Below, one piece after another: positions 11,833-61,626 of a stretch of DNA of 64,000 bases. The notes beneath the pieces are model-generated. The model saw only the letters and a list, made by a program, of their open reading frames with translations, ran no database searches and was not told the origin of the DNA. Position numbers and translations under genes: made by a program. The DNA is taken from the NCBI RefSeq assembly GCF_000315625.1, contig NW_005434571.1:126092-190091 (forward strand). The letters are read 5' to 3'. Origin of the DNA: Guillardia theta CCMP2712 (lineage: Eukaryota; Protista; Cryptophyta). How positions within the stretch are numbered: position 1 is the first letter of the stretch; each line of letters opens with the position of its first letter.

Positions 11833-11860
11833 GATACGTTTCGACCTACCCCACCCTTTT

Positions 11861-11870: not shown

Positions 11871-12090
11871 ACAAAACGATGGGCCGCTCAAGTCAAGTAG
11901 GGACCTTCGATAGGCTTGGTCCTACGGGTCCTACGGCTTGCCCCTATCAGCTGGGGCATATCACCCTATTAAAGTACCCTGTCAGTGATGGCTCGGGGAA
12001 GGGGTGGAGTACAGGCCACAGTCCCGTTGTGTACCCGGAGCTCGCGGCTGCCCAGCAGCCGGGTCAGCATTAGGCAACCTGCCGTACTAA

Positions 12091-13480
12091 TGATTGTCCT
12101 CGTACTGATTTTTAACTTAACTAAAATAAAATGAGCAAACAGAGGTGAGCACTACTACTGTGATATAATACTCATTTTTTAACTAAAATCAACAATCATT
12201 GTGGTAAAGTTGCCCACCTGGTCCAGCAGGCCCTAGTGGTGGCCATTAGCATGCCCCGGGTCAGGCTGGCGGGGCCCGGATCCGGCATGATGATGATCGC
12301 CGGGCCCGCCATGATCGGCGGCGCCCGGGCGGCCGGAGTCACTCGGCCGGCCCGTCATCGGACACTGTCAGGCCGGGCCGCGCTCAGGGTCTGAGTCCGA
12401 GTCCGCGCCCGGCCGGCCCGTACTACTACGTGACGGGTAGTACGGTCCGGCCCCCGACTCGTGCCAGTGACCACGGCGGGCCGCCGGGCCGGGCCCCGGG
12501 CCCTGAGTCGGAGGCGGGCACGCACTGACCGCCGTCCCGTCGGACTCCCGGCGGGCGGGGGCGGGGGCGGGCCGGGCCGCCGCGCCCCGGGCTGAGAGGA
12601 CCCGCGCCGTCGTGTCCCGGAGTCCGGGGACAGAACTTTCACTTCGGAAGCTGCCAGGCTAGGCTGTGAGGCTTGCCACGCCGGTGACTTCCGGGCCCGG
12701 CGGCCGCTGTGGCTCCGCGGCGGCCGCCCGGCGTTACAGCACTGCGGCAGATCGGACTCTTCGACGACTCTGACGGACTTGCCGGATTTCTACCGGCCCG
12801 GGCCCGGCCGGGATGGGGACTCGCCGCCGGCCCGTGGGCGCGACAGTCACCGCCCGATCTTTCACCCGCAACTAGAGTCAGTGAGCCGGGCTCAAAACCA
12901 AAATTGAAACCCTGCCACTGTGATTTAGAGATTAGTTACGAGGACCGTTGAAGCGAACTTGGAACGGTCACGAGATCAGTGTTTGAACTTGAAGTTTCAA
13001 CGCGGCGTCGGATCCGGTCGCCGTTCGCGTGATCGGACTCAGCCTGCCGCGGCCCGGCCGCCGGCAGTCAGGCTCGGCCGGGCACGCCACCGGCGTGCCG
13101 CCCGTGACAGTCACTGCCGGAGTGACCGCCCGTCTGTCAGAGCCTCGGAGGACAATCCGAGGAGCCTGGAGAGTCCGATCCGACGGTCCCCGCGACGAGG
13201 AGGCTTGAACCTGTCACTGTCGCACCGTGGGAAAAGACGGCGAGAACCAACCCTCATGCCGCAGTGCCCGGATTGCTGTCCCCCAAACTCAGTGACTAAC
13301 AGTGCCCGATACAGGCTACCTCCACTCAGCCGATCGGACTACTTTACTACTGCCGGGGCTACTGGCAGTTACTAGCCCCTCCTGTCCGTCCCGATTGATT
13401 AACGGCCGTCGGTGAGGAGGGCCCCGGCAGCCGCTTAGCCTGTCGAGCACACAGAAAGGCTACCTGGTGACCGCCCGCGG
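12091..13480. repeat. GC-rich degenerate repeat island (copy A of a dispersed element)
   Basis: 12091-12115 is the exact reverse complement of 60681-60705. About 13150-13260 (gaggacaatc...gaggaggcttgaacctgtcactgtcgcac...aaaagacggcgagaaccaa) matches 35830-35940 and 60695-60845. Confidence 0.8.
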
Positions 13481-34399: not shown

Positions 34400-34867
34400 T
34401 CACGTACCTTTCATTCTTTTTCTCACACTCTCGATGTTGTTCAAAAGAAACGGTTTGCTCGGTTGTGGAAGATCGTCGAGTGGGCGTTTTTTGGCCTTTG
34501 AGAAGTACTCTTTCCTCAGGTAGAAACGATCCTTCTTCTTCGATTCGAACTCCAGCTTCAAGTCTTTCAGTATGATCGAGACTGATTTCTCCTTCCTGTA
34601 AATGGAAAGATCACTTTCGCTGCGTCCAATCCTAGCAAGATCTGCTGGTGTGATGTGCCTGCCCTGGTGCCTTAGCGAGATTCCAGCTATGGTGACTGGC
34701 TTGTCGCCTTGCTGCAACCTGGGCTGCCTCCTCAGGAACTCGAGCTGGTCTGGGATTGGGGATGAGCGGAGGACCATCTTGTTGAAATCCCTCACGCAGA
34801 ATCCCACCACAGCACAAGTGCCATGAGAACATTTCTTAGCTGCTTTGCTCGTGTCACTGTCGGACAT
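34400..34867 (-). CDS. Small hypothetical protein with a CSHGTCAVVGFCVR motif
   Basis: 155-aa intronless ORF sharing a Cys/His motif with 37132..37518. Confidence 0.55.
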   Translation of the reverse strand: MSDSDTSKAAKKCSHGTCAVVGFCVRDFNKMVLRSSPIPDQLEFLRRQPRLQQGDKPVTIAGISLRHQGRHITPADLARIGRSESDLSIYRKEKSVSIILKDLKLEFESKKKDRFYLRKEYFSKAKKRPLDDLPQPSKPFLLNNIESVRKRMKGT

Positions 34868-35519
34868 CGTAACACGGATATCAGCAAGCCCCGCCTCTCC
34901 GATGTCAAGCGAAGTGAAGAAGCGAATATCTCATCGCCGACAGGGAATATTCCATCGGCTGCCTTTCACAATCAGGTTTCTAAGGATAGGGAAACATATC
35001 AGAGTAGGTCAATGGCTGTCGCCTTGACCTCTAGCAGTCTGATAGTTGAACGCGTTGGTAACGCTGCGTGTTAGGAGGGTACCAAGAGGGGAATCTGCCT
35101 GTGCGGTCGATCGCACGTCACTGCTCGTGTAATTTTACTGGATTGTCTACCTTATGATGTTACATCGCCGATCAAATCAGACACCTCGTACCTACTGGAA
35201 TATTTCCTAATGAGGCACATAGATTTTGTCATAGGTATATGAAGCCTGAATGGAGGTTGTCTTGAGCACGCCAACTTTTTTGAACCAATTTAACCAATGC
35301 CATGTGACTTTCTGTCTCAGTCACGAGGCACAAAAAGATAACGCGCATCTCAGAAACACTACCTACCCCACCCTCCGACCGCAAATTGATGGGGGAAACT
35401 GCCACCTACCTTTCCCCCTCTCTTCGCTGTCAAAGTACCCGTACCCTACCGAGAGTCATATTTCACTGAGCACCCTATGAGACACCCCAAGGTCTATCTT
35501 TACACCTGCTCACCACTGC

Positions 35520-36700
35520 TTGCGCCTGTTCTCGTGACCGCCTGCGCATCCGAGGTCACGTGCTCAGCGGCTGCCGCTGTCACTCGAATCGGAGCCATGT
35601 AACTGTGACCGTACAGTGACACTCCGACTCACGGCCCCCGTGTGTGCCGGGACCGTCCGATCGGACTCCCGGACGGGCTGCCCCGGGCCGGTGCCGGCCC
35701 GGGGCCGTGAACTTCGGAAGTCCGGGCCGTCGGAGCCGGGCCCGGCCGGCCCCGGGGCAGTCACGGACGGTGTCGGATGGCACTGAGCGGGCCGCGCGGC
35801 TCAGGCTGCGGCTGAGACCGCCTCAGTGAAACGAGGAGGCTGAGGCTCAGCAGCTTGACTCTGTGACCCTGACACTGTCGCACAGGCCAAACGGCGACTC
35901 GGAGAAGAGTCGAAGAAAAGACACTGCGGCGAGAACCAAACCCACTGATCCTCAGCGCGGCACTGCACTGCAGGACAATCCCCCCGCGCCACTGATGCCA
36001 GCCGCACGGATGTCGCTGTGGCGGCGCCGCCGAAGGAATGAGCCTGTGCCGCACTGACAGTGATACCGGAATGCACGGGCCCGCGATGATGGCCGGGCAG
36101 TGTACTACCGTAGGACACTGGCAGGGAGGCCTTGCCTGAGCTGACGTCGGAAAGATCCTGAGCCTCCGAGGCTGAACCGGATGCGTTTGCAAGTCGGATC
36201 ACCCGGCTGAGACGTCCGAGTCAGCCGAGTCTTGTGAGGCCGAGAGACCATCCAGCGCTCAGCCGTTTCCTTGTTCCGAAGTTCAATTCGCCGAGCCTCG
36301 GAGCGATCCGCCAGCCACCGATTCTCAGGGCAGGCTAGTACGGCGCGCCGCCGCGGCGCGGCAGAGCACCGGCGGGAGCCGCGGCCGGCGCTGAACTTCA
36401 GGCTTGTGCCCCCCCGGTTGAACTTCCCGAGTCCGTTGATCCGAGGGCCGCGGGACTCGACTCGTCCGGGGATCATCGGGCGGCCCCGGCCCGATACGTG
36501 CCCAGGCTACCCGTACAGTGACCGGACCTGATCAGGACCGAACGGTACTAGGCTACCGTACGGTAGTACAGGCTACTGTACCAACTGATTTACTAACCGT
36601 TGAACCGGCAGCTTAACTCTGAACTTGCCAAGTCCGGAACTGAGCGGCCGCAGCCTGCAGTGCGGCGCTCGGCCACCGAGAACTGTCAGACACTGAGAGT
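35520..36700 (+). repeat. GC-rich degenerate repeat island (copy B)
   Basis: Collinear anchor blocks shared with 60715-61090, including an exact 28-mer accggatgcgtttgcaagtcggatcacc (36176-36203 = 61049-61076). Confidence 0.85.
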
Positions 36701-37131
36701 GAGGTATCTTCAACCTGTTCGCCGCCAAGTAACAGCTTTCGATCAAGGATATTTTGGAAAGAGCTGTTTTGTCCTTCCATCCACCTATCGCAGAAAAGAA
36801 CAAGCCTGCTCCCCTGGAATCATGGCACAGTGGTCAGTCTAGATGCAGTGAGAGTCTCAATGATGTCGCAAGCCTATAGTATCTGAGCCTGAAAGGATTA
36901 CGTGCGTGGTCGGTCTCTGATTCAACACTATATCAGGCGATATGAGTATTGTGAAGAAGTCGATGCGCTTCAATCGGAATGACGAGTTCACCCTGTCCAG
37001 AACAAAGCAAGTTTGCTCGTGTAGGATTCCATACATAATATAGTGAAGGGTCATCTACTGGTCATGTATCAAAATGGTGAAATGTCAGGGTTCATCAGCT
37101 GAAAGCTCAGATCATCATGTTTTTATACATG

Positions 37132-37518
37132 TTAAATACTAGGGCATCTACTTCTACACATATCATTGTTACTAATGTCGCTTCCGGATTCCTCTGTGCA
37201 TTCCAATAAGTTCTCTGCGGGGGGGCTAGGTTCAGGGCACACTACTTTTACACTCGCACTTAGGATCCTTTCCGTATAGCACGGTACTGATACCCTCCGA
37301 GTTGCTGAAACTGATTGGTCTTCACGAATGCAGTATCCAACAATCGCGCAGGTGCCGTGATTACAGCTTCTGCGCGTTGGTATAGCTTCGTATTGCTTTG
37401 GTTTGCAAGCAGAGGTCCGTATGAGCTTCATTTCACCAGCGCATCGGTGACTTGTTTCATGGACAACATCTACTTTGTCACAAATTTCATGTGATGTCGT
37501 GGTAGCGGTCGTCTGCAT
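37132..37518 (-). CDS. Small hypothetical protein with a CNHGTCAIVGYCIR motif
   Basis: 128-aa intronless ORF; motif paralogous to 34400..34867. Confidence 0.5.
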   Translation of the reverse strand: MQTTATTTSHEICDKVDVVHETSHRCAGEMKLIRTSACKPKQYEAIPTRRSCNHGTCAIVGYCIREDQSVSATRRVSVPCYTERILSASVKVVCPEPSPPAENLLECTEESGSDISNNDMCRSRCPSI

Positions 37519-37829
37519 TCTTGTGTGGTAGCAGATAGGTGACCTCTATTTTATTAGCTCTAATGTCCTCGTGACCCCACGACCCCATTCAAGTTTACTA
37601 CAATACTCCGAGCTACCCCTACCCCCTCATGGCCCACAAAAAGTACCTAATTTCGATATCCCAGATACACTTCAATGCAGCATGACCCATCCGCGTGACC
37701 AAAAGGTTCGATCATGTGTTCCACCCCCACCCCCTTGGACTGCTTCTGGTACCCTACCTAAATCATCGTGGAGGCTGAACCCCTGGCCCCAGTCAGATCT
37801 CTCCACCCCTCCTTTTCACAAGAATCACC

Positions 37830-38450
37830 GGTACTGCCAGCCTCTTGCACCGCTCACGGACCAGTAGAAGTGCATGGTTGAGGCCACGACCGTGGTCACG
37901 AGGGATACCTCTGAATGCTCACGTTTCAGGCTCCGGAAGGTGTCGAATGTCCGAAACGGTGTAACATAGGAACGACGGCCTGACCCGTGAATGAGGCTGT
38001 GACTGTCTTCTTCTCGTGACCCGCCTGACGGACGGGGGCCGTCGAACTCCGAAGGTGACAAAAGTGTCGCCACCCGGCCGTGTCGCGCCCGCAACCGTCT
38101 CACAGTCACCGGGCGGAGTCCGACGGTCGGACTCACAGGCTGACGGTCTACGGTCAGTGAATCGGATCCGTCACGCCGCCGGTTCCCGGCGGCCCCGGGG
38201 ACCGGGCTCGCCGCAAGGCCCGGCCCCCGCAGGCTGCCAGCCGCGGAGGCTCACCGTGGCAGCATCTTCTTTGCTGATTGTTAACTTAACTTTGAGTAAA
38301 GACAAAGTTAAGTAGACCGCAGCCTGGCAGGGCTTTTTACTCAAAGTTAAGGCAGGGCGGCTGCGGCCGGGCCCGGCTCACTGAGTCAGGAGTCCGGCCG
38401 GGCCCGGCCAACTTGGCCCGGGCCCGGTGAGTGCGCGGCAGTTTGATTTG
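37830..38450. repeat. GC-rich degenerate repeat island with element-end-like AT motif
   Basis: tgattgttaacttaactttgagtaaag (38276-) and inverted tttactcaaagttaag (about 38336-) match the motifs at 12091-12122 and 60657-60705. Confidence 0.65.
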
Positions 38451-38495
38451 AAAGGGCGTGGGCTGATTGGGGGATGAGGCGTCGGTTAAGGCTAG

Positions 38496-41056
38496 ATGGC
38501 AGTACCGCGAGGAATGGTGATAGGGGGGAGGGGAGGGAGGGGAAGGGGAAGAGGAAGAGGGAAGGATAATCTGAGCAATGAATGGGATACAAGGAGAGAA
38601 GGAACAGGGGAGGAGGATACAGATGCTGATGTGGAGATGGTGGAGACCCAAGGGGTTCAAGCACAGGATCCGAGGGAGCTTGACCCTGGGACGCTGGTAA
38701 TGGTCGAACAAGGGAGCGAGGAGGGGAGGTTTAGAGGTACCATAGTGGATGGATGGGACGGTGCTCTGTTTCACGTGAGATACATGGACAAGCACAAGAA
38801 GGATGATGAGGTAAGTCGAGTGTCTGCATGGACATTGATGTACTGTGCTCAGTGATTCTGATACCGAACACGCTTGCAGATCGTTGAGATCAGCAGGATT
38901 TTCAAGCTGCGAAGAATGTGCAATAATCACATTCAGATTCAAAGCGTGAAGACATCGCATTCCAAATCAACGAATGACGCGCGGGTTGCCCCCCAGGATG
39001 TTCATGTTCAACTTCAGACGATCGTCGAGAACCATGAACCAACAAGCCGTCGGGATGTAACACTACTGATGGATCAGAATGCATCGTTGCCTGATTCTGC
39101 ATCTGAAGATGAAGTTGTTAATGGCATGTTATATAAGGACAAAGAGGGGAATGCGGAGGAAAGGAACTTACACACTGAGGTAGAAACTCTGATCAATGAA
39201 CTGAAGCTGAGGCGGGGGAGCAAAGGGGTTGCTTCCAGGAGTAAAGAGCTCGACCAGATACAGGAGTATCTCATGCAACAGAAGGAGAAGATGGAGAATG
39301 CTGTGAGAGTTGAGTTTGAGGTCGATGCACAGTTCGTTGGCTTGGTGGTCGGGAAACGAGGAAGCAACATCGCAAAGGCATCTGCTGTTGATGGAGTGGT
39401 CAAGATCGACGTGCAGGAGACAAGAGTTGCTATCATTGCTGAGTCTATGGAAGCAGCCGAGGCTGCAAGACAGATGCTTGAGTATAGGAGACTAAACATC
39501 CCTGTCGAGAGAAGAACTACTCGGCTTCTGGTGGGGAAGGGGGGTAAGAACTTGAAAGATCTTCAAAGCAGCTCGGGGGTGTCACGAATCAAGATCGATG
39601 ATGGAAAAGGAATAATCGAGCTTCTTGGTACACAGATAGTTTTGTTTTTGACCACTGTATTTGTCATGTCATAACGAGTTTCCTGCAGGAAATAGCTCAT
39701 CGCTTGAGAAAGCCCGTCGAGGGATTGAGTTGATTGCCCGATTCGTTTCTCAGCAAGATGAGTTCATTGAAGGATCAAGAGATTTGCACAGAGACGTGAA
39801 TATGATGATTGGTAACTCTGTTCGGTCGGAGAGCCAGGGCGGGATGTTTTTTTCCTTGGTGGAAGGTGATGGTGAAAACGGAAATCAGTTCGTGTTCACT
39901 GATGAAGGGATGAACTATACAATAGAAGTGCTGAGTTCTAAACTTGGCTTGATTATTGGTCATCATGGGACGAAGATCAAACAGCTGAAGGAGGCTTCAA
40001 AGTGTGGTATTGAGATCGTGCGAGGGCAAGAAGAGATCAGCAAAATTTACATCACCGCGCTGAGTGATGACGCGGATCCTGACCTTGCGCTATCATTGAT
40101 CAACAACATCGTACTGGATCCCCAGCCAGGACAAACATACGCACAGGCATCAATCACAAAAGTTGCAAACTTCGGGGTTTTTGTTGCGATCGGGGAAGGG
40201 AGAGAGGGGCTGCTGCATGTCTCCGATGTCCCGCTCATGAAGAGTGGAGCTATCAGTTATAATGTAGGACAGAAAGTGAATGTTGTAGTTACTAGCGTAG
40301 ATGATCGCGGTAAGATTCGTCTCGGACTCATGCAACACGACGAGGACGGTATCTTGCCCGACTCGAATGGGATCCCCGTGAGAAAAAAGAAAGAGGCTTT
40401 AGGTCCGATTGCGAGCTCCTGCGTTGCTCCTTTCTCACCTCCCTACTGCAGATGTCCGCCAAGGAGAGGAATGGCCGGCGCTGCTCGGGCCCATGCAAGA
40501 AAGCCGAGATGAATGGTACGCGCGAATCAGGAGCCAGAGGAAAGACGCCAGCCATCTTCACGCCAACGCTTCCGTCCCCAGCAAGAACTTTCCCGCAGCC
40601 AAGGACTCGAACTCCTGGGATGAGAACTCGAGGACCAGGCCGCGGCAGCATGCTCCTGTCTCCTCTCCGGAGGCCCCTTCAGCTTCCATACCGCACACCC
40701 CGTCAGCTAACCGCAGCATCGGCCATACACCCACTGGCCCTCGCCATCTTGGAAGGAGCGCACAGATGGAGTCTACCGGGCCTACACGAAACAGGATGGA
40801 GCAGCCACGTACCTTTCGTGTGGCCGATGCAGACTACTCACGCGAGTACGTCCTTTATGCTCCCAAAGAGTCCGCGATGGGAAGAAGAGAAGGGGTTGGT
40901 GAGTCATTCAGACTCTCTGTGACCCTCTTCTTTTCTGAGCTGACTGACGTTGTCGTAGGCCTCTCGAGACCGTCTGATCGCGATGAGACAGAGGCAGGAG
41001 GTCAGGAGATCACGTCACTACGGCAGCGGGTGGCCCAGGCTCGCGGTAGGAGATGA
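38496..41056 (+). CDS. RNA-binding protein: RGG + Agenet/Tudor-like + FMRP-like KH-KH + PNPase-like KH-S1; 4 inferred introns
   Basis: GGRGGRGRGRGRG. LDPGTLVMVEQ...FRGTIVD...FHVRY (Tudor/Agenet-like). KH GxxG loops VVGKRGSNI, LVGKGGKNL and IIGHHGTKI. S1 ITKVANFGVFVAIGEGREGLLHVSDV...VGQKVNVVVTSVDDRGKIRL. Introns 38811-38879 and 39628-39688 keep the frame. Confidence 0.88.
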
Positions 41057-41059
41057 TTG

Positions 41060-41480
41060 AAGTTTTGAAGAAAGTTGGGGAGTTTTCTCGGATCCAATCT
41101 CGGTGTCATCGGCTATCATAGTACGGTATGCGGCGCGGCAGTGCAGAATGGCAGTTGAAACCGAGCCTCGGAACTTGAACCCTATTAGCCTCAGCCGCAT
41201 GATGACGCAGTCAGTGACCTTGACTGCCATGATGAATCTTGACTTTCGGATGAAAGAGCCTCCGAGTCTCGTCTCGCTGCTGCCAGCGTCACGCGACCGG
41301 GGTCCGATGTTCGACTCACGCTGAGGAATCATTGACGGCGTACCGTTCTGGGTGGGCCGGGGCCCGGGCCCTGCAAGTTCCGGTTGAAGTTCACCTCACT
41401 GAGTCAGTCAGGCCGCAGGATTACACCTAGACGGACCGTGCAGCGGAAATCGGCCGAGTCCAGGAGGCTGACATGATGGT
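41060..41480. repeat. GC-rich degenerate island with the same insertion vocabulary
   Basis: Dense cggcc, ccggg, gagtc, ctgag and cagt words; no credible ORF. Confidence 0.45.
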
Positions 41481-47418: not shown

Positions 47419-48402
47419 TCAATAAGTGCTGGTCAATATACATGGATGGTTATCTCGCACAAGGTCCAATCGTAGCTTGAAAGTTTCATGTGGGTGGTGT
47501 TTTCTGATTGCAACCCAGAGCTCATGGTCGGAAGTAACCAGTATATCGTCACCGTCGTCATCCATGTAGGAGAGAAGAAACCTCTTCGAGATGTCATGGC
47601 CGTTTGCCTTACGTAGAATAGACGTCAACTCTGAAAAGCACCCAGAAGGCACACTGTTCCTATCCTTCCTTTGCAAGAAAATGAATACTTTACGCAAAAC
47701 GATCTCGTCTGATTCTTGTTGGCATGCGACTTTGAACTTTGCAATACTCGATAAGTCTTCTGTCTGCTCAAAGCAAGGGTTCCAAGGATCAAATCTGCCG
47801 TCTTCTGAGTAGGAAATGGAAGGAGAAGCAGAATTCGACCAAGAAGAGTCACTCTCGGCAAAACTTTTTGAAGACAGAGAGTCGTCTGAGTCTGAGTCGG
47901 GACTGTTTGCAACCGAGCGATGCGGCCCCTTACAAGCCTTGGGGTTACTTGCTTGCTTCAAGATTTTTGATATTGCTGATTTGCTTTTACCAAACATGGT
48001 GGCTAGCTCGGATTGACTCTTTTTGACAGCTGGGTCGTTTGATTGGTTCAAACGAATGATTTCTGCTCTCTGGGTTTGAGTTAGCCTAACTTTTCCCTGA
48101 CAATGCTTCTTGTGTCTTATTCTTTCATAGTCCGTCCAAGTTCTTCCACGCTTTGCCTTATTGCTGCTAGTCGGAAGATGCTCAAATTGGTCATGATTGA
48201 CAAGGGATCGAATTTCAAACCCAATCTGTTGCCCCGCATCGTGGTAGGGAAGCACGTTGTCTCGGCATAGGCTACACTTAACAGATCCACTCTCACTTAC
48301 AAGGTCTTGCACGATCGTTTGTGATTTACATTCCGAGCACATTGCGATGAGGAGATTGCTGCTATGCCTTGATGGCGTAGGAAGAGTTTCTACAGCGCTC
48401 AT
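47419..48402 (-). CDS. Putative transcription factor: CxxC..CxxC + CENP-B/psq-type HTH + C-terminal PB1 domain
   Basis: HTH RLTQTQRAEII...KSQSELATMFGKSKSAISKILK. PB1 OPCA motif LSYMDDDGDDILVTSDHEL. Confidence 0.78.
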   Translation of the reverse strand: MSAVETLPTPSRHSSNLLIAMCSECKSQTIVQDLVSESGSVKCSLCRDNVLPYHDAGQQIGFEIRSLVNHDQFEHLPTSSNKAKRGRTWTDYERIRHKKHCQGKVRLTQTQRAEIIRLNQSNDPAVKKSQSELATMFGKSKSAISKILKQASNPKACKGPHRSVANSPDSDSDDSLSSKSFAESDSSWSNSASPSISYSEDGRFDPWNPCFEQTEDLSSIAKFKVACQQESDEIVLRKVFIFLQRKDRNSVPSGCFSELTSILRKANGHDISKRFLLSYMDDDGDDILVTSDHELWVAIRKHHPHETFKLRLDLVRDNHPCILTSTY

Positions 48403-49000
48403 TGAGTACCCTGCTAGGACGAGCGTGAGCGGCGCAGGAGGGGTTTAGGACTTTGAAGGGGGGTGTCGGTGACTGTAATAAAAGGGTGGGCTGGGGTTGT
48501 CACTCCCGGGGTTGGGTCTTGCAGGTGTATCAGGGGGTGGGGGGTAAAGTGAGTCAGCAAGTCACGTTATTCGCGGGGGTTGTAAAGAAGCGGTCACGTC
48601 AAAAACGGGAAAAAAATCCAACGAAACTACTCTGTTTCGACTTAGTCACGTTGATCGCGGGGCTTAAAAACTCCCTTTGTAAAGAATCTGAAAAAGAAAG
48701 ATTTCGAAGCGATTCCTCTCGTCCCCAAGAGACGAAAGGTGGAATATGATTTGTTCGTCTCTTCCCAAAATCCTGAACTGAGAGTCAATGTAGAAATTGG
48801 ATGTGCGGCTATACATGACAGCCCAAGGGAAAACCTTGGATTGAACGTTTATTGCACAAGACAATGATGGCACAAGCAACGTTTGGACAATCAAGAACGA
48901 TGAGATAGAGCTAAAAATGCAAACACTCGTTCATTGATCTATTGATAACCAATAGGGTAACGATGAAAGGAATAAATTAAAGAAATTTCCGAAGATTTTC

Positions 49001-49915
49001 TTAACAAATCAGCTGCACATTCATTCTAACATACAGGCCCGCTGGAAAATGCTTCATGGCAATGCCAAGCTCATGGTCAGAGGAGACAATTATGTTGTCA
49101 CCATCCGCGTCTTGGTAAAACAGTCTCATAGTGTCTGCGAATGCGACGTCGAGGCCAAATTCTTTGATCACCGCTTCAACAAGCTTTCGATACCCTTGAA
49201 ACGGTTCACCAAGCCAGTTAGTGTCAAGCCACAATGGAATGACTCTGCAGGATTGATCGTTTGAAGTAGAAACAAGGAACTCAACCATGCATCTTCCATT
49301 GCTTGGACTTGATTCCTCAATTCCCCAAAACCCGTGCTCTCCGCCGTAACTCGAATCCAAGTCAGACCTTGCTTCTGTGCATTCTGTATCCGATCGGATA
49401 AATTCAACATTTTTGTTGTTGAAATGTGCTGCATAATTCTTTCTTATCTTCTCAACGCTGCTTGGTCGCAAAATTTTCGAAATGGCAGATCTGCTGGTTC
49501 CAAAGAGCCTTGCAATCTGTGCTTGAGTCATCCTTTGTCGCGGATCACGCACTGAGTCCAATTCAACGATTGCTGCCCTCTGGGAAGGTGTCAAACGCAT
49601 CTTGCGGGAAAGCTTTCCTGTTTTCTTTGTACCGAAGCTTTCGAGCCCGTTTCCGAGAGACATAGCATAGGTTCCAGACTGCCATGTGTTTCCCTGCAAG
49701 ATAGCAGCGCCCAGAACAGCTCCATTATTGTGTGTATATACTGGCGTGTACCCGCTACATACATGAGAATCACATGCTGCGAGAGGATCATGATTGCGAA
49801 TTTCCATTGTTGGCTGTATTTCACACTGGTTTGCGAGATGTTCGACAGCAGGCAGCTGATAGACTGCTTGATCATAATGATAGGTGTGAAAGAAGGTTTC
49901 AGGATAGTGATGCAT
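49001..49915 (-). CDS. Paralogous HTH + PB1 putative transcription factor
   Basis: RLTPSQRAAIV...MTQAQIARLFGTSRSAISKILR and LFYQDADGDNIIVSSDHEL. TATA-like cttataaaaac about 40 nt upstream. Confidence 0.78.
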   Translation of the reverse strand: MHHYPETFFHTYHYDQAVYQLPAVEHLANQCEIQPTMEIRNHDPLAACDSHVCSGYTPVYTHNNGAVLGAAILQGNTWQSGTYAMSLGNGLESFGTKKTGKLSRKMRLTPSQRAAIVELDSVRDPRQRMTQAQIARLFGTSRSAISKILRPSSVEKIRKNYAAHFNNKNVEFIRSDTECTEARSDLDSSYGGEHGFWGIEESSPSNGRCMVEFLVSTSNDQSCRVIPLWLDTNWLGEPFQGYRKLVEAVIKEFGLDVAFADTMRLFYQDADGDNIIVSSDHELGIAMKHFPAGLYVRMNVQLIC

Positions 49916-50899
49916 GTTTATCTTCAGCCTCCTCTCTTGTGCCTAGTGTTGTTTTTATAAGCAAGTTTCTGTGGCAACAGGGAGAAAGAAAAGCAGGTCC
50001 GCCTCGGATCTTGGTTGGGGGGACGTGGTCTGTGATACCTCCGAGTTGTTTTGAGTACCGGTACGAGACACGAGAGAAAGGTGGGTATCTTTGTCTTTGA
50101 AAAGCTACAAGGTGGAGACGATTGGGAATGATATCAAGGAGTCCTTTTGACAGGGGTATTCTGCCTATGGGTGTAGGGTGGGGTGCTTGCGTCAGCGATT
50201 GCAAGTGGAAAAAAGAAACTAAAATGAGCGACCATTGCCACAGGGGGATGTGACCATTGTAATCTCCGAGATCATTTACGCTGATGGTACTTTGATATGC
50301 TTCGGAAGGGGAAAAGAGGGGTGGGGGTGCGCGGGCTCAAAAGGGGCAAGCAAAGCTTGCGGGTGGAAAAAAGAAATCCTGCAGGTGGAAAAAAGAATCT
50401 GTTAGCGCCGGGATCCCAAAAAAAGGGGAGCCAGGCAAGAAAGACCCTTTTTTCCGGCCGGGATCCCAAAATAGCGCAAATGCCAAGAAAAAGGGTGTTT
50501 TGGGATCCTCCCGAGGGTGGGTGGTTCCAATCGGTGTAGAACCCCACCCCCGATCAGATTTGAATCTGCAACCTCAAACCGGAATTATTTTGAGATCCAA
50601 GAGTTATAACAGATCTAAATCGGCATACAAGGGTTTTACGGGTTTTAAAATCGGGACGTGTGGTACAAAGATCAGTACTGCTGGTACCAACACGAAGAAA
50701 AATTGCCAAGCAAAACGATGCAGAGGGGGGTGGTGGGTGGTGGGTGGTGGGTAGTGTACGTTACATGGGAAGGAGGGGTGGGGTCCCTCCTCACCCCCCC
50801 GAACCCCTTCCAAGAACTGGGTCCTTCCTAGCCTTAAGAAGGACGGACCCTCCTCACGATGGGGAAGGCAGCACCCCGTCGTGTCCCGCACCCTGAGCA

Positions 50900-53800
50900 A
50901 TGGCGGACAATGGCGGACAAAGCCAACCGCTGGAGGCTGGTCTCCACCAGGATGGCAACCAAGCCTGCGCGAGTCATGCAGGCGATAGTCATGACCAGGA
51001 AGTTGATCAGCTCTCTCCATCCAGTTCTACGAACCCCCCGGCTGTGGCACAGCCCAACTCGTGTGTCTTCGGTGCTGTTTGCTTGATGCAAAAGGAGGCA
51101 AACGCTGTTCTGAAGGTATGCAAAATATGCAGGTTGTGCTTTCACCTTGTCTGTGCATGGGAGTTAGCTGGCTCGGATCGCAATGATGAATGTGGAAAGC
51201 ATGCACCTCGTTCACGCAGAAAGAGGGTCAAAGACAAGAATGCGCTTCTGAGAATATTTGACGACCCTGAGGCTTGTAGCATTTCGGCTTCAGATGACCC
51301 CAACATCCAAGCATTTCTTGATCTGGAATTCAACACGGTGAGCCGAAGCACTCAAGAGACGTATGCTTATCGAATTATGGGTATGATCGAGTTCTTCCAG
51401 AAGGATCCAAGATATCACGCAGCACTCAACCCAGGTCGCACGAACCTGAAGCTCCCATTGCCATTGGACTTGCTCCAGGCTTTCTTTGGTTGGCTGTGTG
51501 AGCACGACGGAATGAGGACAGCAGGGTCCAAGAGGAAGGCAGCATCGGCAGTAAGTGCGGACGGCGAAGAAGAAGAAGAAAATGCAGATACCCCAGACGT
51601 GGCAGGTCACGAGCGTCAGGCAGAGGTAGCCAACATTTTGCAAGTATCAAGCAGAGACAAAGCAACCGTAGCTGTGTCCACCGTGCAGGGTTACAAAAGT
51701 GCGTTGAAATATCTGTACAGACGCAGGAATGTTATGTTTACGGCAATTGGGTTGAAAACTGGCGGAAGATCATTGGATGACATACTGGATGGTTATATCA
51801 ATTCCTATACCAAAGAAGTTACCCGGAAGAAGGGCGACGGTGTGATGCAGGCCCACGAGGGCAAGACAACTCTATCCATGCCAGAGTATAAAGCACTGAA
51901 CAACATCTTGAAGGAGCTGAGACCTCGCAGAGGAAGTTCAGAGTCCGGCAGTTCATGGATTTTCTCTTGGGCATGCTGTTCTGTCATGTGGAACCTGGTA
52001 TGCAGAAGTGAGAGTCTAGACATTTTGCATCTTGAGCACTTTGACTGGGAAAATGATTGCATGAAGGTGGTCTTACTCAAGACAAAAAAAGATCAGTGTG
52101 GCATTGGTACTGACATGCGAAGCACGAGGATAAAACATGTGTTTGCATCGCCCTACACACCAGAAATGTGTCCTATTCTCATTCTTGGGTTGTATATATT
52201 TGCCACGCGACATGGGCAAGTCTCATTCTCTGGAACGAAGTTATTCCCAGGATCAGACCAAAAGCAAAGGTTTTGCACGTTATTGCAAAGAGGGATTCGA
52301 CAAGCTGCAGACCAGTATCATGGCAACTTGGAAGAAGCAGGGAGTCATTCGCTGCGCAAGGGAGGAATATCTCATCTCCTTGCTTTTCTGGAAGGACCAG
52401 GTAAGGGCCAACCGTTGCATGAAGGTTTACTGAATGGTGCAATGCAGGAGTACCAACTGTTTATATTCGAGCCAACTGGAGGATAGGTCATTCATGAGTG
52501 TGATGTTCTCCACGGCACTATGCTGAGTCATGCGGTTGACAGGAGACACAGAGGACCGGTACATCGTGGGAGGAGCAGGAGGCGATCAGATGTGTGGCAG
52601 ACTTTTAGCAGGGAACGATCCTAGCACGGCTGAATTTGCTGTGCTACCACCACATTTTTCCCCTGAAGGGATGCAAGAGATACAAGCGATAGGATGGGAC
52701 AAATTCATCAAGAGTTTCAATGAACTGCCGCGGGGGTTCAGGAATTGTATACCTTTCTTTCTGGCTAGTATTTTGTATCATCTTCCCACTCTGCAAGCAT
52801 GGTTCCCTGATCCACAGCATTCCATATGGGAAATTCCGCTATTTGGCATGTTTGGACAGGACACGATGAGTAGATTGAATCAGCTACGTGACAAAGTAGT
52901 TTTGAAGGTTCACAGTTGCCAAGAGTGTGGCATGCTCGCACATGGGATTCCAACAAAGACCGATATCATTCATACCATTAAGGAGCTTGTGACGAAAGTA
53001 TCAAAGGTTGAAGGCATGTTCACAATTGACGTGATGAGAAAAGCTGCAGAGTCTGGAGAGACAATGGAGGCATCGACCAAGTCAATGGAGTCAGAGATGT
53101 TAAAGGCGTTAGACATGGTGACACAACAATTGAATGCCCACAACAAAGCACTGAACAAGACACTGAAGGAGAACTCGAAACAAACACAGCAAGGTTTGGA
53201 AAGAGTTTGGATGAAGCTGCATAACATAGAGGAGAACATGAAAGTTATGTTCGAAATGATCACATCAGTGTTGCATGGAAATAATTCTGTGCGAGACGGG
53301 AGTTCGGTGGAACACAGGTTTGCATGGCGGGAAGGAACACAAGACAATGAATTGCTTGTGGAAAACAGCTCGGAAGCAAGCTCAGGATCAGACATGGAAG
53401 AAGATGGGTCATTGAACAGTGGAGCAGACAACGATGAGGCCACTCCAGGCGAAGACCAATCATTGAATGATGACGAAGTAGAGGGCGATTGGTTCGAATG
53501 GGGGGGGGCCGCCACATGGTTCCTGCAGATTTCGAATGGCCACAGAAAGTATCAGTCAGAAACATGATGACGTATTGGTATCAAGGGCGGATTAGAAGCA
53601 TTGATGGAAGGGTACAAAGAATCAGACCATTTTATAACTTTTACAAACTGAATTTGAGGCATGACTTGAAAACGAAACCCAGCAGGAGGAATCTTTACAA
53701 AGCAAGGTGCGTGATGATGGAGATAGAGAAGATTTGCCGGGAGAACGGAACGATTGGTGAACAAGGCGAGATACGGGCAGACAACATCCAGGAATGTTAC

Positions 53801-54031
53801 GACAAAGCCTTTCATGTGCTGGTTGAGAGAGCATACGGGAAGTCGGCATGGCAGAGGCGTGAACTCAAGCACAGATATGAACAGCTGAGTTACATCACGT
53901 TTTGCAACAAGTTACACTTGGAGAAGGATAGGACGACAGCTCGACCTGAACACACACAAGACTCCATGGAGTCTTCAGATGAGAGTAGGGAAAGAACGAC
54001 ATATGCTGCAGCATTGTTGAAAGACTTATGA
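50900..54031 (+). mobile_element. Crypton-type tyrosine-recombinase DNA transposon gene (PHD-like finger, YR domain, GCR1_C-like DNA-binding domain); 2 introns and 1 frameshift
   Basis: Catalytic set R (LVCRSES), K (KTKKDQ), HxxR (SHSLRKGG), W (IRANW) and Y (EDRY), followed by GDQMCGRLLAG. Introns 52401-52447 and 52487-52542 restore GPGVPTVYIRANWRIGDTEDRY. C-terminal FEWGG..HMVPADFEWP...YWYQG...IRPF. Frameshift in the G9 run at 53500-53508. Confidence 0.85.
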
Positions 54032-54094
54032 CAGTGGGATGGGAATGAAGATGAACATATGTTTCACCTACATGATTCTACACCATCCCATCTG

Positions 54095-54633
54095 CCATCA
54101 CTCCTCTACCATCACTCCTCTACCATCACTCCTCTACCATCACTCCTCTGCCATCACTCCTCTACCCTCTACCATCACTCCTCTACCATCCCTCCTCTGC
54201 CATCCCTCCTCTACCATCCCTCCTCTGCCATCACTCCTCTACCATCACTCCTCTACCATCCCTCCTCTGCCATCCCTCCTCTACCATCACTCCTCTGCCA
54301 TCCCTCCTCTGCCATCACTCCTCTACCATCACTCCTCTGCCATCCCTCCTCTACCATCACTCCTCTGCCATCACTCCTCTACCATCACTCCTCTGCCATC
54401 ACTCCTCTGCCATCACTCCTCTGCCATCACTCCTCTACCATCACTCCTCTGCCATCACTCCTCTGCCATCACTCCTCTACCATCCCTCCTCTACCATCAC
54501 TCCTCTGCCATCACTCCTCTACCATCACTCCTCTACCATCACTCCTCTACCATCACTCCTCTACCATCACTCCTCTGCCATCCCTCCTCTACCATCCCTC
54601 CTCTGCCATCACTCCTCTGCCATCACTCCTCTA
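54095..54633 (+). repeat. 14-bp minisatellite CCATC(A/C)CTCCTCT(A/G), about 38 copies
   Basis: Direct tandem array with no unique spacers; begins about 65 nt after the Crypton stop codon. Confidence 0.95.
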
Positions 54634-55601
54634 CCGTCTCTCTCCCTTGTTGGCATCTTTTCTCGGACATCTGTCATCTACCTGTCGTCTTCTTCGTTTC
54701 CCCAACACATCTTGTCCGAACTCCCCTGTGAAGTTGCCTTGCGTATTTACCACGCCGGAACAAATTTTCGAAACGGAACTGAGATACTACCCGGTTTACA
54801 GACGTTAAAAGGACCGGTGATCAGTTTCCGAGGGCTATGAGGGGAAAAAAACATCTTTGTTTCTTGCCAAGGATCTCTCCGACACCTGTCCGATCATGAC
54901 CGTACTGACCTTGCAAGACTCTGTGAGAGGCGGGCCTGGGATCCCGCCGGGGACTCGGAGACTCCGGGGATCATCCCGTGATTGTTGCCGGGGCACCGGA
55001 GTTATCTGAGGTTCGGCACCCGGCACTCTGCCACTGATGGTAACGGAAGCAGTAGTGAAGGCGGCTCCCGGTCTACCAGGCTGGACGGACGGTGATCGGC
55101 CCGGGTCAGGAAACTTCAAGAAACGGCGTGAACTTCGGAACCATACTAATCAGGCGGGCAGTTGAGACGGTGGCCGACTGGGCGAACGGCGTAACCGTGA
55201 ACTGAACTTCTGAAGTTGAACTGAGGGGCTCGGTGCCACTACTGCAGCGGCCTCAGGCGTGACTCCCGCCGGCAACTCCCGCCGGCACAGTGCCGTTGGG
55301 CCCGGGCAGGTGAAGTTATGTCAATGGTAGGTGACCGTTCAACTTCCGAGACAATGCTTGCCGGGATGGCAAGCCAATGACACGGTGAATGGGAACAACG
55401 CTCCCAGGTGGGATGGAAGACTGGGACGCACGTCTCAGGCCATGCGTCACATGTGGCGGGAGGAGGCGGGTGAGAGGTTTGATGCCGAATGTTGACATCA
55501 AGACATAGACGGATCAAGTTGTGGCATGATATGGGGCACTGAAGGATTCCTGGGTGTCTCTTTATACATAGTAGTATAGTTTACATGCCCTGCAGTACGA
55601 A

Positions 55602-55631
55602 ATGATGATGATGATTATGACTCAGTGAGAT

Positions 55632-55672
<41 letters not shown>

Positions 55673-55673
55673 G
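55602..55673 (+). repeat. Compound (ATG)/(ATC)n/(CAG)n microsatellite
   Basis: atgatgatgatg...atcatcatcatc...agcagcagcagc. Confidence 0.85.
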
Positions 55674-56324
55674 AGGGGGGGTCGTTGAATGCTGCAGTCG
55701 AAGTAGATGTTGTCGAAAAGCGTCGAAAAGCATCGCATGGTCCAGAAGCGTCGGTGTCTCACTGCCACGAGGTTGGGCCTGATCCGGGATGATCATGGGG
55801 AGGCAACCGTCAAGCCTCCGTGACTCAGAGAGACCGCACGCTTGAAGACGACCCTTGAGTGAGACACTGCATGGTGAGTCCATCATGGGGGAGAGGAGCA
55901 TGGCAGCCGGGATGGGGCAGGGGATGCAACCGGCGGCTGTCACGGTGGGGGGGGGAGGCGGCGGGCGTCGCCGCCATGGGGCATGCGGGGTTTGAAAGTG
56001 GGACAAGTCGCAACGGACGGGCCGCAAGGCACCCGGTACATATCTGTACGGGGGGGGGTACCGGGAGCGGGTTAGAATTGAGTAAAGGCTGGGGTGCCCG
56101 TACCCACCCCGGTACCGCGGGCGGTACCGGGGGGATCAGTCAACCCCGCCCCTAAATGTCGCCCTTGTTTTTTTTCCCCTTTGCTCCTGTACCTTTTTGA
56201 AAATCTCAAAACATCCCAATCGTAGAATTCAGATCGGGGTATCACTAGGAGACCTACGGGCGCAGATTGATCTCGGTCATTGCCAATGGGGGACATGACC
56301 TGTATATCCTCCGTTATCACGAGG

Positions 56325-57380
56325 TCTGTATATCCCCCGATATCACTTGGGTGTTCCTAGAACGGAGGGGTGGTGAGAATTGCCTGCATGCAGGGAAAAA
56401 AAAAAATTTACACTGAGTGCAGTCCTGGCCGTTTAGGGGTCAGAGTCACGGCAAGGAGCAGCTCATGGGACAGCGCGGCGCAGGCCGCTGAGTGTTTCCG
56501 ATTGAGTCGCAGCAGTCCTCAACCCTCAGATCTGATCTGTATATATCCCCCGATATCCGATGATCCCCCTCGGTGTTCATAGAACGGAGGGGTGGTGAGA
56601 ATTGCCTGCATGCAAGGAGAAAAAAAAGAATTGCGGCCGCGCCGGGGGTCACACGCCGGACTGGGAGCACTCCGACTCGGCAGCTCATGGGACACTGGAG
56701 CCTCGGAGCGCTCCGAGCCAGCGGCCAGCACCCAGTACGGTCAGGCTCCGATCGGACCGACGGCCGACTGACTGCAGTCAGGCGGCACAACCCTCAGTCG
56801 GGGGCCGGCTCCTCCGCCGGACCCTCACAGTGACCCTCAACCCCCGGGCCCAGTTACCGTACTACCTTTGAGTGAAGGAAATGTACCGTACCGCAGTCGC
56901 GGCCGGCCCGGCAGTGCCACGAGCAGTCACGGTGCCACCGGGCCGGCCGTCACAGTCACTGGCCCAGTGGAACGGTAAGGCCCAATGGCAGCCGGCAGAC
57001 ACACGCCGCCGGCCGCGTGCCACATTGGCCCAGGCGGCTCCGACTGACTCCCCCCCGGGGCCCGGCCCGCCGGGCCGCCGGGGCCGCGGGGCCGCCGGTA
57101 GTACGGCCCGGGCGGCGCGGCCCTGGCTCACAAGCTGTCACTGTGCGGCCTCCCGGGCCCACTGAGTCATTCCGGCGCCGTACCGCCGGTACGGTACTGT
57201 AGTACGGTCGCCCCCGTACGGTCACCGCCCCGGACCGGACGCCGGGGCACGCCACCGTGACCACCGCAGCCCGGAGCTCCAGGCTCCGAGGAGCCTCCGG
57301 CCTGCCTCCGAGCCTGTGAGAGTCGAGAGTCCGGCTGGGCTGCCCGGCCCGCCCGGGCCGGGGCGCCGGGGCCCGCCCAT
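56325..57380. repeat. Tandem duplication (about 222-bp period) merging into a GC-rich degenerate island
   Basis: 35-nt identity tagaacggaggggtggtgagaattgcctgcatgca at 56358 and 56580; gcagctcatgggaca at about 56458 and 56680. Confidence 0.85.
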
Positions 57381-57885
57381 GGAAACTAACACAATCAACT
57401 CCTCAGAGACAACCTCAACAAGAAACAACGTTAACAACTCTACCAGTGACTGTTGGAAGTGTGATTTGAAGCTCAATCATACGCAAGGGAATCCAATGTC
57501 GGACCGTCAGCGTTGCCGCGAGTGCGCAAAGAATCAAAGTTGAAATCAGAACGAGGACAACGGCCCACGAGCTGGCAAAAAAACAAGTACGGCATGGATT
57601 GACTGCACAATGAGTCTTCAAGCCTTGAAGAGTCTTTCCGGGCTTTCTGGGTCGGGCCCACTCGGGGGCTCTGTTCATGTGAAGGTTCGCGCTAACTTAA
57701 CCGGATTTATTCAAAAATGTTTGGGCTGGAATCATTTCACAGTCATATGTACATTACACCTGCCTGAACCAATCGTTGGCGATCCGATCCGATCCGATCC
57801 GATCTGATCATTGCCAAGGTGCCGGGCACGATATCGTGGTCGGTCGTCTAGGCACTATCATCCAGGAAGCTTTAAAAAGTTCTTT

Positions 57886-59388
57886 TCATTGCCACTGAGT
57901 GTCGCTGTTCAACGACTCGAAATCTTCCGGAGTAAGAGACTTGCTCCGCTTCATCAACCATGGTCTTGACGATTGTGGTAGACAGTGGTCCCCTTCCCTA
58001 CGCTTTCCCCCCTCAACTTCGTCTGATTCGACCAGTGGGTGCAAATGCGGATCGGATGAGCACTTTTCAAGAGCACGGATTGTCCTCGCCTGATCCCTGT
58101 GAAGCATTCCTGCTGTGACCATCTGCGCAACCTGCCTTGAAGTAGACTCTTGGAAGCAACTGCTGCTGTAGTCGTTGTCCGCGTCTACCCCGAGCCCTCG
58201 TACGTTTCCCTTTCCCAGTCGGTGCATCCTCGCCTCTTGCTCGTGCAGGAAGTGTTGTTGAATTCCAATCACACTACCTGGCCTGCACACTCTCAGCCAT
58301 GCGATCGCCTCCTTCGCAGTGAACAAAAAATGTTTCATTAGGTACAAGGCTATGAGCGTCCCTGTCCTGCCCAGTCCTGCCAAGCAGTGCACAGCCACCG
58401 CATTCTTGGATTCCTCGCACTCCAACAAGAAGCGATGAACAATCTCGCGAGAAGGAACTGTACAATCATTGAAAATGAGATCAACATGTTGGAATCCAGC
58501 GTCAGCGAAGGTCTTTGCATCGTACTCAGCTTCGTTGAGTCTGACAATCTTTTCAACTCCCAAGGCAGCAAACAAATCAAGAAAGTCCTCAGGACTATGA
58601 GCTAAGCTGTTCCTACAAGAATTAGACACAGGACCTTTGAAAGCAATGAACTTGTCCGGAACAATAAAGTGCAGATCGCCATTGCGAGGGTTGTCGTAAA
58701 AAAGATATTCCTCGGAGTCGAAACTTGAGAACTTGTAGAAGCCGCACTTGCGCGCACGTAGTAACCCATCCCAGCAGTCCTTCACAGACAGGTCGTGTGT
58801 GCTCTTTGTCCAAGTTGCATCGCGATATGGACGCAGGTGTCTCTGGCTGATCTCCGAGAAGACCTGCATGGCCACGTCGGGGCGAGCGTTCAGGTGAAGA
58901 CAGAGGAAGGAACCAAGCATGAAGACGGCATTGGTGATGTCTCCAGGAGCATCCGGAACCGCAAAAACGATCTTCTTACCCGAAAGCGTTTTGCTCAAAA
59001 GGTGATCTTTGAAGACCTTGCAGTAGTGGTGCACTGCAGCTATGTTCATTGGGCCGAAATCCGCGCAGAACGGAACATATGCGTATTTCTTGTTCATGTG
59101 TATCCATCTTTCATCGTGAGATCTGACTGCTCCACTGATGGCAAGATAGAGCCTTCCCTGTAGCACTTCAAGCTTCCCCGCCTTGAACACTTCCCTTGTA
59201 CGCAAAACGAACTCCTCGTCGGATCCTTCGACTTTCATTGCATACTTCCTTCTACCGGAGGCGCTACTAACACATCTTCTTGCAGGCTGGTCAAAGTTGC
59301 TCAGCTGTTTTCGTCTCATCGCAGTATGAGCCAGCGCAGTCTCGATCGGGCTTGCATGGCGGGCAGAGCTTCCTGCGGTCACTGCCAT
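57886..59388 (-). CDS. CDC14: Cdc14-family dual-specificity phosphatase (intronless)
   Basis: DSPn domain YVPFCADFGPMN...PYRDA...DCWDGL; NGDLHFIVPDKFIAFKGP; IVRLNEAEYD; P-loop AVHCLAGLGRTGTLIALYLMKH; WLRVCRPGSVIG. Confidence 0.95.
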   Translation of the reverse strand: MAVTAGSSARHASPIETALAHTAMRRKQLSNFDQPARRCVSSASGRRKYAMKVEGSDEEFVLRTREVFKAGKLEVLQGRLYLAISGAVRSHDERWIHMNKKYAYVPFCADFGPMNIAAVHHYCKVFKDHLLSKTLSGKKIVFAVPDAPGDITNAVFMLGSFLCLHLNARPDVAMQVFSEISQRHLRPYRDATWTKSTHDLSVKDCWDGLLRARKCGFYKFSSFDSEEYLFYDNPRNGDLHFIVPDKFIAFKGPVSNSCRNSLAHSPEDFLDLFAALGVEKIVRLNEAEYDAKTFADAGFQHVDLIFNDCTVPSREIVHRFLLECEESKNAVAVHCLAGLGRTGTLIALYLMKHFLFTAKEAIAWLRVCRPGSVIGIQQHFLHEQEARMHRLGKGNVRGLGVDADNDYSSSCFQESTSRQVAQMVTAGMLHRDQARTIRALEKCSSDPHLHPLVESDEVEGGKRREGDHCLPQSSRPWLMKRSKSLTPEDFESLNSDTQWQ

Positions 59389-60239: not shown

Positions 60240-61550
60240 GAGTCAATCTGAGCGCCGCTGAGAGGCCTCCTCACACCGTGCCGCAGTGCCGGCGGGGCCC
60301 GGCCGGCCGAGTTCGGAGTTCAGTACGGCCGTACTAACGGTGGCCCCCGGGCCCCGGCGGGCGGCGGCCAGCGATCCGATCCGATGATCGGATCCCGAGT
60401 CCTGCCCAGTAGACGGTCGCCCCGCCGGGGCCCGGCCCGGCCTCTCAGTGATTCAATGTGATAGAGCCCGGCTAGCCTAGGCGGCCGGTTCACTCGCCGC
60501 CCATGACTGCGGGCCCGCGGCGGCGGCTCGAAGCCGGCGCCCGGCCCGGCGGAGTCCGAGACCGGCCGACCGCCGGGGCGCCCGGGCCCGCCGCGGGCTG
60601 GGCCGGCGCGTGATCGGACGGGCCACGGTGTGACCGTACACGGCCACTGAGATGTTCTTTACTCAAAGTTACTATCAAGTTTAAAAATCAGTACGAGGAC
60701 AATCAGGAGAGTACGGTCCGAGGAGGCTTGACCCTGACACTATCGCACGGTGACTGGCAGGCCCTGAGGGGCCCGGCGCCGGGGCCAAACGGGCCGTGCG
60801 GCGGCGAGCGGCGAGAAAACTTGAAAGACAGCGAGAACCAAACTTGCCACTCACCCAATCCTGCCGCCGCGTGCAGACTGCTGGCCCACAAACGCCATGT
60901 CAGCCGCCGAAGGACGGCGCCTGGCCCGGAATCGGAGACGCATACCGTGGAATGCACCCGCGACTCTCACTGGCAGCGACCGTACAGCGCGGCCTAGTAG
61001 GATCGGACAGGGAGGCCTTGAGCCGCTGAGCTGAACCAAGAGTCCTGGACCGGATGCGTTTGCAAGTCGGATCACCTGAGACGTCTTGGCCGGCGGCCCC
61101 CGAACTCTCAGATCGGTCAGTGCCTTCTCAGTGCCAACTCGTATCCGACTCCTGACCCCACCCGAAAGGACCGGCTCAGCCTCGGCAACCGTCAAATGTG
61201 CGAGGATCTTGTACTTGTAGCTTTGTCGCCGTGACTCGCACCGTAGCTCTCCCGGGCCCACTCACTCAAGAGAACCCACGAGGCCCGGCCCTCAGTATCT
61301 CGGAGCGCCGGGTCTAGTCAGTGCCGCAGGCTCAAATCAGTCAACCAGTGCCGGCACTGAGCATAGCTCAGCTGCTTCCGATTCTGTCACACTGGCCCGG
61401 CCCGGTTGCAGTACCAGTTCACCCGGCAGTCTGAAGAGCCATGATGGGCCTTCGGCGACCGGGCTCGACCGTCGGACTCACGGTGCCAGTCTGCGCCCGG
61501 CGTTGACCACTGTCCAGTACGGTCAATACGGATCTGACTGCCTCCCGGTG
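60240..61550 (+). repeat. GC-rich degenerate repeat island (copy C)
   Basis: Shares collinear blocks with copy A (12091, 13150-13260) and copy B (35830-36230). Confidence 0.85.
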
Positions 61551-61626
61551 ATCAAAGCAAGTCTAAGAGCCGTCAAGGTTTCTGACTGTCACTCCATTCC
61601 TCGATCGACTGATGTGTAGTAAGAAG

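Follow-up and report, generated by a model that had tools for sequence, protein, structure and literature searches.

The window, by which we mean the whole 64-kb stretch of nuclear DNA from the cryptophyte Guillardia theta analysed here, contains six G+C-rich non-coding regions whose unusual texture stands out in a motif profile (near 12.0–13.5, 35.5–36.7, 38.0–38.5, 40.9–41.5, 54.9–57.4, and 60.2–61.6 kb). The texture fills islands of 0.4–1.3 kb and reaches well past three dispersed repeat copies, A, B, and C, that lie within them (Table 1). G+C content is 0.67 in the islands and 0.40–0.60 in most other 1-kb windows. A palindrome count along the window agrees with the initial annotation that neighbouring genes are free of the texture.

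Island B is flanked by two minus-strand genes (34403–34930 and 37135–37545), transcribed and conserved in the freshwater metagenome X18, which have a short motif in common, xHGTCAxVGxC, and match no Pfam family. Elsewhere in the window there are two adjacent PB1-domain genes, at 47422–48444 and 49004–49942 (-), and a tandem array of short units at 54080–54650. A C-rich, CTACCCC-like motif occurs just outside three of the islands (11840–11860, 35360–35375, and 37610–37630), with a TATA-like box beside one of them.

Table 1. Coordinates of genes, repeat copies, inserts, and scarred regions in the window
Feature	Position	Strand	Basis
Copy D, further family end	12085–12135	-	25/25 identical to 60681–60705
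Scar island with copy A	12230–13450	.	Alignment to B/C and palindrome count
Copy A	about 13140–13262	+	Aligns to 5' part of repeat
Scar island with copy B	35540–36700	.	C/G-centred palindromes 2.8–3.2x local shuffle, 400-bp bins 35601–36800
Copy B, interior of the probably MITE-like repeat	35830–36276	+	Anchors, polarity, alignment
Derived inserts of copy B	35842–35863, 35924–35928, 36076–36079, 36203–36206, 36214–36228, 36234–36237, others	+	Alignment
Weak candidate for the right-hand inverted end of copy B, scarred	36585–36622	-	p 0.015 in 200 shuffles, from a set of 36 comparisons
Scar island	38020–38450	.	Contains two back-to-back family ends
Scar island	40900–41480	.	Palindrome count; no element end detected
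Crypton-like element in three ORFs	50897–54031	+	Weak phage-integrase SAM-like match, E 0.001; family from motifs
Scarred region with unrelated tandem pair	54880–57380	.	Family end at 57537–57560
Tandem pair of unrelated repeat, A-rich tract	56297–56480, 56536–56760	.	Copies differ by same insert type
Gene 100% identical over 60% of length to GUITHDRAFT_158653	57889–59388	-	Sequence match
Scar island with copy C	60240–61570	.	2.6–3.0x local shuffle
Copy C, family's sharp 5' end at 60658	60658–61095	+	Contig boundaries, alignment
Inserts of copy C	60673–60678, 60713–60718, 60749–60758, 60790–60801, 60844–60846, others	+	Alignment

An assembly artefact around copy B can be excluded, as three contigs of run X1 reproduce positions 34500–38518 without a difference: 34500–35889, 35871–36205, and 36176–38518 are each matched by one contig with no other letters and no gaps. 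The assembly may itself derive from run X1; in runs X2 and X3, which come from two other studies, 0.85 of the sampled words are present.

A dispersed repeat as host of the inserts

Copies B and C share nine exact collinear anchors of 9–28 nt, all inside the element (35832–36216 in B, 60719–61085 in C). The best of these anchors has a BLAST E-value of 7e-9, and the whole B–C chain scores 163, as against 96 or less for any other pair of islands. This bears out the original description of dispersed copies with collinear anchors and short copy-specific inserts, and the three examples quoted with it were all found in the sequence. Whether the anchors are nearly substitution-free, as further stated, varies with the penalty set on gaps: mismatches and gaps come to 10 and 45, 38 and 27, or 63 and 21 (the alignment under the stiffest penalty, with 8 matches, was left out of the substitution counts). 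Neutral DNA accumulates roughly 0.1 indels per substitution, and even 63 mismatches with 21 gaps lie far above that ratio.

The inserts are derived, because other genomic copies lack them. In B, the inserts that precede 35864 and 36172 and the one that follows 35897 are absent from the majority of the loose ends of other copies; the 6-nt insert of C near 60713 is skipped at a depth of 17,963 out of 26,572, bases 60672–60680 are missing from nearly all the depth of other copies, and behind 60748 the sequence of other copies runs on without the 10-nt insert of C. We conclude that the inserts are gains rather than what deletion from a longer ancestor has left, although some five scored inserts (e.g. 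36076, 36234, 60844, 60947, and 56694) fall outside these polarity calls. Many copies of the family are intact at any one position, and scarring is therefore patchy across it.

At least 50 X1 contigs leave the repeat at 60656–60658 into unrelated flanks, and therefore the family has a sharp boundary and occupies at least tens of sites. As many as 395 contigs lie on 113 bases at the left end of C, and the flanks of other copies before 60656–60658 agree at just 0.37–0.49. Depth in X1 amounts to 13,044 in the bin 35870–36006 and 20,102 in the bin 38199–38335, compared with 66 for single-copy DNA, this summed depth not being equal to copy number. Matches to the family end in the window number three, against 0.04 expected; two of the ends stand back to back, 35 bp apart, at 38285–38300 (minus) and 38336–38351 (plus), and 38285–38351 is the top read pile-up of the stretch. 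In four X1 contigs the interior of B is joined to the reverse complement of the end word at 38276–38284, with just 20–27 letters on the sides, and terminal inverted repeats are therefore probable and the family MITE-like. A TA target-site duplication is possible, as the conserved end begins with TTTA. X18 holds a relative that differs at 16 of 497 nt in a neighbouring gene and carries the same repeat family with the same boundary; its contigs give no long cover of island cores and as such cannot show absence. In one contig, found in both X1 and X18, the sequence returns from 60738 to 60681 across 16 intervening letters, which suggests subterminal tandem repeats in the family.

The host repeat is a high-copy family, probably MITE-like, similar to MITEs and other non-autonomous DNA transposons in its high copy number, sharp end, probable inverted termini, and the failure to find a coding relative. 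The earlier view that it descends from a transposon or viral ORF is unsupported, because no protein relative was found, RNA is nearly absent over B, and the ends are probably MITE-like. RNA depth is 0–1.5 over B and 16–51 in the next gene (in about 6% of the run), and for an island ORF a set of 3163 candidates of 81–259 aa yielded no relative at E≤10. No RNA run on record was listed as containing this DNA. A translated anchor of C (a weak test, with a query of 33 aa) gave as its sole match a 335-aa repetitive sequence, which was hit via insert-derived residues and which we attribute to chance; this match has a regular repeat-spacer pattern and resembles a translated array. Rfam gave no matches, DNA scans for the family anchors in viral contigs found none, and a scan for cryptophyte contigs using a window gene found none either. 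Three metagenome matches and one prokaryote match to the anchors have unrelated flanks and were taken as chance.

Symmetry of the inserts and their junctions

The small vocabulary of insert words noted at first is better put as one symmetry rule: an arm, then C or G, then the reverse complement of the arm. Enriched words in the islands (six segments, 5586 bp in total) are almost all odd palindromes. Those centred on C or G number 803 in the six islands, against 281±15 in shuffled sequence and 326 in the largest of 200 dinucleotide shuffles; with arms of at least 4 nt there are 128 against 22. Sites centred on A or T show no enrichment (140 vs 149); the ratio for the remainder of the window is near 1. 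Some of the motifs, whatever their centre base, had served to choose the islands, but classes that played no part in the choice are among the strongest, namely AASTT (7.5x) and TASTA (10x), whose arms consist of A and T only. All 16 arm classes are enriched, by 2.0–10x, and an explanation by a set list of restriction or methylase sites was rejected for that reason.

When inverted arms are sorted by spacer length, the counts peak at 1 nt (943 vs 428) and are flat at 2 nt (441 vs 425), with mild rises at 0 (496 vs 397) and at 3 nt (596 vs 423) and no excess peak at longer spacers up to 12. The inverted copies are adjacent, around a centre of 1 nt. Arms are short, with 536 of 2 nt, 198 of 3 nt, 94 of 4 nt, and 44 longer. 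Tandem periods of 5–8 nt are enriched in the islands as well. A patch of even palindromes, GGTACC/GTAC, at 56020–56140 falls off the odd-centre rule (bin 56001: 9 vs 14).

The same rule can be followed at the insert junctions. Fifteen inserts were scored, 12 of them non-redundant gaps of the alignment, flanked on each side by 5 or more matched bases, and three taken by coordinates (the row 60748–60793 was dropped as a duplicate of 60749–60758). A C/G-centred palindrome with the retained flank as its outer arm is present at 9/15 left and 8/15 right junctions, that is, at 17 of 30, where the island null is 0.28 (p=0.0009); A/T-centred junctions account for 2/30 (null 0.05). Examples in C are CAC-G-GTG and CTG-G-CAG. 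Six of the 15 inserts are capped in this way at both ends, four at neither, and five have a palindrome at one end or a weak second end. At seven left junctions the first new base is itself the centre; four of these have A or T as the following target base, and still their centre is C or G. Both C and G are found at left junctions, and either side takes either base. Pairs of C..G 4 apart (25) and of G..C 3 apart (23) exceed neighbouring distances (4–14) in a post hoc comparison, a hint that leans slightly towards a polar process and is unexpected under random addition. The flanking duplications of 2–5 nt that had been reported were not recovered as such, the duplications being 0–3 nt long at 15/15 clean inserts.

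Proposed hairpin capping and its rivals

We conclude that the C/G-centred scar signature is real, sharply defined, and probably of hairpin type. A palindrome with a single-base centre would exclude an ordinary annealed loop and fits a covalent hairpin that has been opened, or synthesis that makes a U-turn; hairpin opening gives palindromes around one central base in the footprints described in PMC5873905. As the centre is C or G whatever the target base, an added base is suggested, and terminal transferase (TdT) is described as favouring C and G (10.1101/248021). Single-base palindromes and a target-independent C/G centre together therefore favour breaks followed by C/G addition, hairpin capping, opening, and end joining. 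In such a cycle a putative nuclease would make a double-strand break with a stagger of 0–3 nt, a putative terminal-transferase-like polymerase would place one untemplated C or G on the 3' end, and the end would be sealed as a hairpin with the added base as its loop, or else synthesis would make a U-turn. The hairpin would be opened 1–4 nt from its tip and the ends joined, and repeated cycles would inflate the locus and push it towards higher G+C.

The islands would then be non-coding DNA filled with inserts of the form flank, C/G, mirror copy, at loci that were repeatedly broken, hairpin-capped or folded back at their ends, and rejoined. We put the chances of this reading at about even. The proposal of break-and-fill events made at the outset agrees with it, in that the inserts are derived, copy-specific, and of an anatomy fitting a hairpin or fold-back step. 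Counted against the hairpin model are the four inserts without a cap at either end, the rise at spacer 3, the several scored inserts that are nested multi-step events, and the failure to see a fresh or polymorphic insert, X1 being equal to the window.

A visiting cut-and-paste transposon could produce a similar picture if it hairpinned its flanks and hopped locally, the inserts being excision footprints whose loop base comes from the end of the element. A short insert bounded on both sides by odd palindromes is the classic hairpin footprint, local hopping would account for islands, and the excess of C-left/G-right pairs 4 apart is also in its favour. The footprints of Ac/Ds (hAT) described in PMC5873905 resemble the scars in their short palindromic additions around one central base, on both sides of the joint, with arms mostly of 1–4 nt. 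However, the centre in the Ac/Ds footprints of that paper is the complement of the bordering base, whereas in the islands it is C or G regardless, with 3/7 left junctions fitting the complement rule and 4/7 breaking it; with C/G centres beside A/T targets in those four, the scars are therefore not standard hAT footprints. C and G each occurring on both sides also speaks against such a visitor, and no intact one was seen among the islands. Target duplications of hAT elements are 8 bp long, whereas those at the scars are variable and never exceed 3 nt. The lack of an A/T-centre excess and the duplications also set the scars apart from standard hAT footprints; a further difference is that the island scars are stacked over whole kilobases. 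The automated repeat table for G. theta in PMC12747079 (Table S10) lists no hAT, EnSpm, or Harbinger copies, alongside 41 MULE copies and 18,844 unclassified repeats. On this evidence we consider a visiting transposon rather unlikely.

Template switching would dispense with breaks altogether: a polymerase at a stall or lesion would add C or G, copy the opposite strand backwards by a snap-back of the kind known from polymerase-theta end joining, and return. It yields short inverted copies and small duplications, much as fold-back templated insertion leaves short inverted copies beside a break, and both the five inserts with a palindrome at one end or a weak second end and the enriched tandem periods of 5–8 nt would suit it. 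Nevertheless, the yeast fold-back insertions described in PMC11724301 have loops of 18 and 41 nt and microhomology priming, in contrast to the fixed 1-nt centre of the islands, and the six inserts capped at both ends are what two processed ends predict. We regard this route as improbable. Two more ordinary causes, decay of G+C-rich repeats by slippage and micro-indels or selection that favours short palindromes as binding sites, are very improbable and largely refuted: short tandem duplications are present and B–C substitutions may number up to 63 under stiff gap penalties, but slippage copies are direct and not mirrored, shuffles that preserve dinucleotides always stay far below the count in the islands, and one protein would not enrich all 16 arm classes with C/G centres alone.

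Hairpin capping with C/G addition has a partial parallel in immune-receptor assembly. In V(D)J coding joints the P nucleotides form even palindromes and the N bases lie outside them, whereas the C or G of the islands is the palindrome centre, and the island process is dispersed and heritable. The likeness lies in hairpin-derived mirror bases and C/G-biased untemplated bases, as set out for coding joints in 10.1101/248021.

Possible targeting and significance

Copies A, B, and C serve as the ruler that makes the scars visible, and they may or may not attract breaks. The initial annotation had gone further and proposed an insertional, RIP-like genome defence, in which the host aims scarring at repeats; this is compatible with any of the chemistries above. 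In its favour, an end of the repeat family lies within or adjoining 5/6 scarred regions and the genes are spared. On the other side, purifying selection by itself spares genes, the repeat could equally prefer landing in such islands, and at any given position many family copies are intact. The island at 40.9–41.5 kb has no detected element end, the unrelated tandem pair at 56.3–56.8 kb is scarred too, and no scarring is seen in the Crypton-like element (93 vs 89) or in a gene-poor stretch of 4.4 kb at 42.9–47.3 kb (107 vs 124). The Crypton-like element is broken, and PMC12747079 tabulates no Crypton-F copies for G. theta.

RIP consists of C-to-T changes, and shares with the islands that repeats degrade faster than genes. 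The islands, in contrast, gain G+C, change by insertion, and are not depleted in CpG (observed/expected 0.90–1.04 in 7/8 segments and 0.71 in one), so that a RIP-like C-to-T process with dinucleotide depletion does not apply. We hold targeted defence to be doubtful. Equally doubtful is the extended proposal that cryptophyte nuclei have a dedicated insertion mutator, made up of a nuclease and a C/G-adding polymerase, which hairpin-caps breaks at repeat loci and destroys mobile DNA by repeated mirror scars. If true, such a mutator would be the insertional counterpart of RIP and could explain part of the unclassified repeats of cryptophytes.

In the openly accessible literature that was searched, we found no description of this signature. 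The rule fits on one line and can be counted in any assembly within minutes, so that what began as a vague texture becomes a mutational signature of a process open to testing. The signature suggests an end-processing chemistry, with C or G at the hairpin tip, that is unlike the rules of Ac/Ds or V(D)J, and it may bear on the outcomes of genome editing in these algae. Of the 64 kb here, about 6 kb are G+C-rich non-coding DNA that the process has created de novo. According to the repeat figures of PMC12747079, unclassified repeats make up 25–35% of cryptophyte genomes and just 6.6% in G. theta; if general, the signature may explain part of this unclassified cryptophyte fraction.
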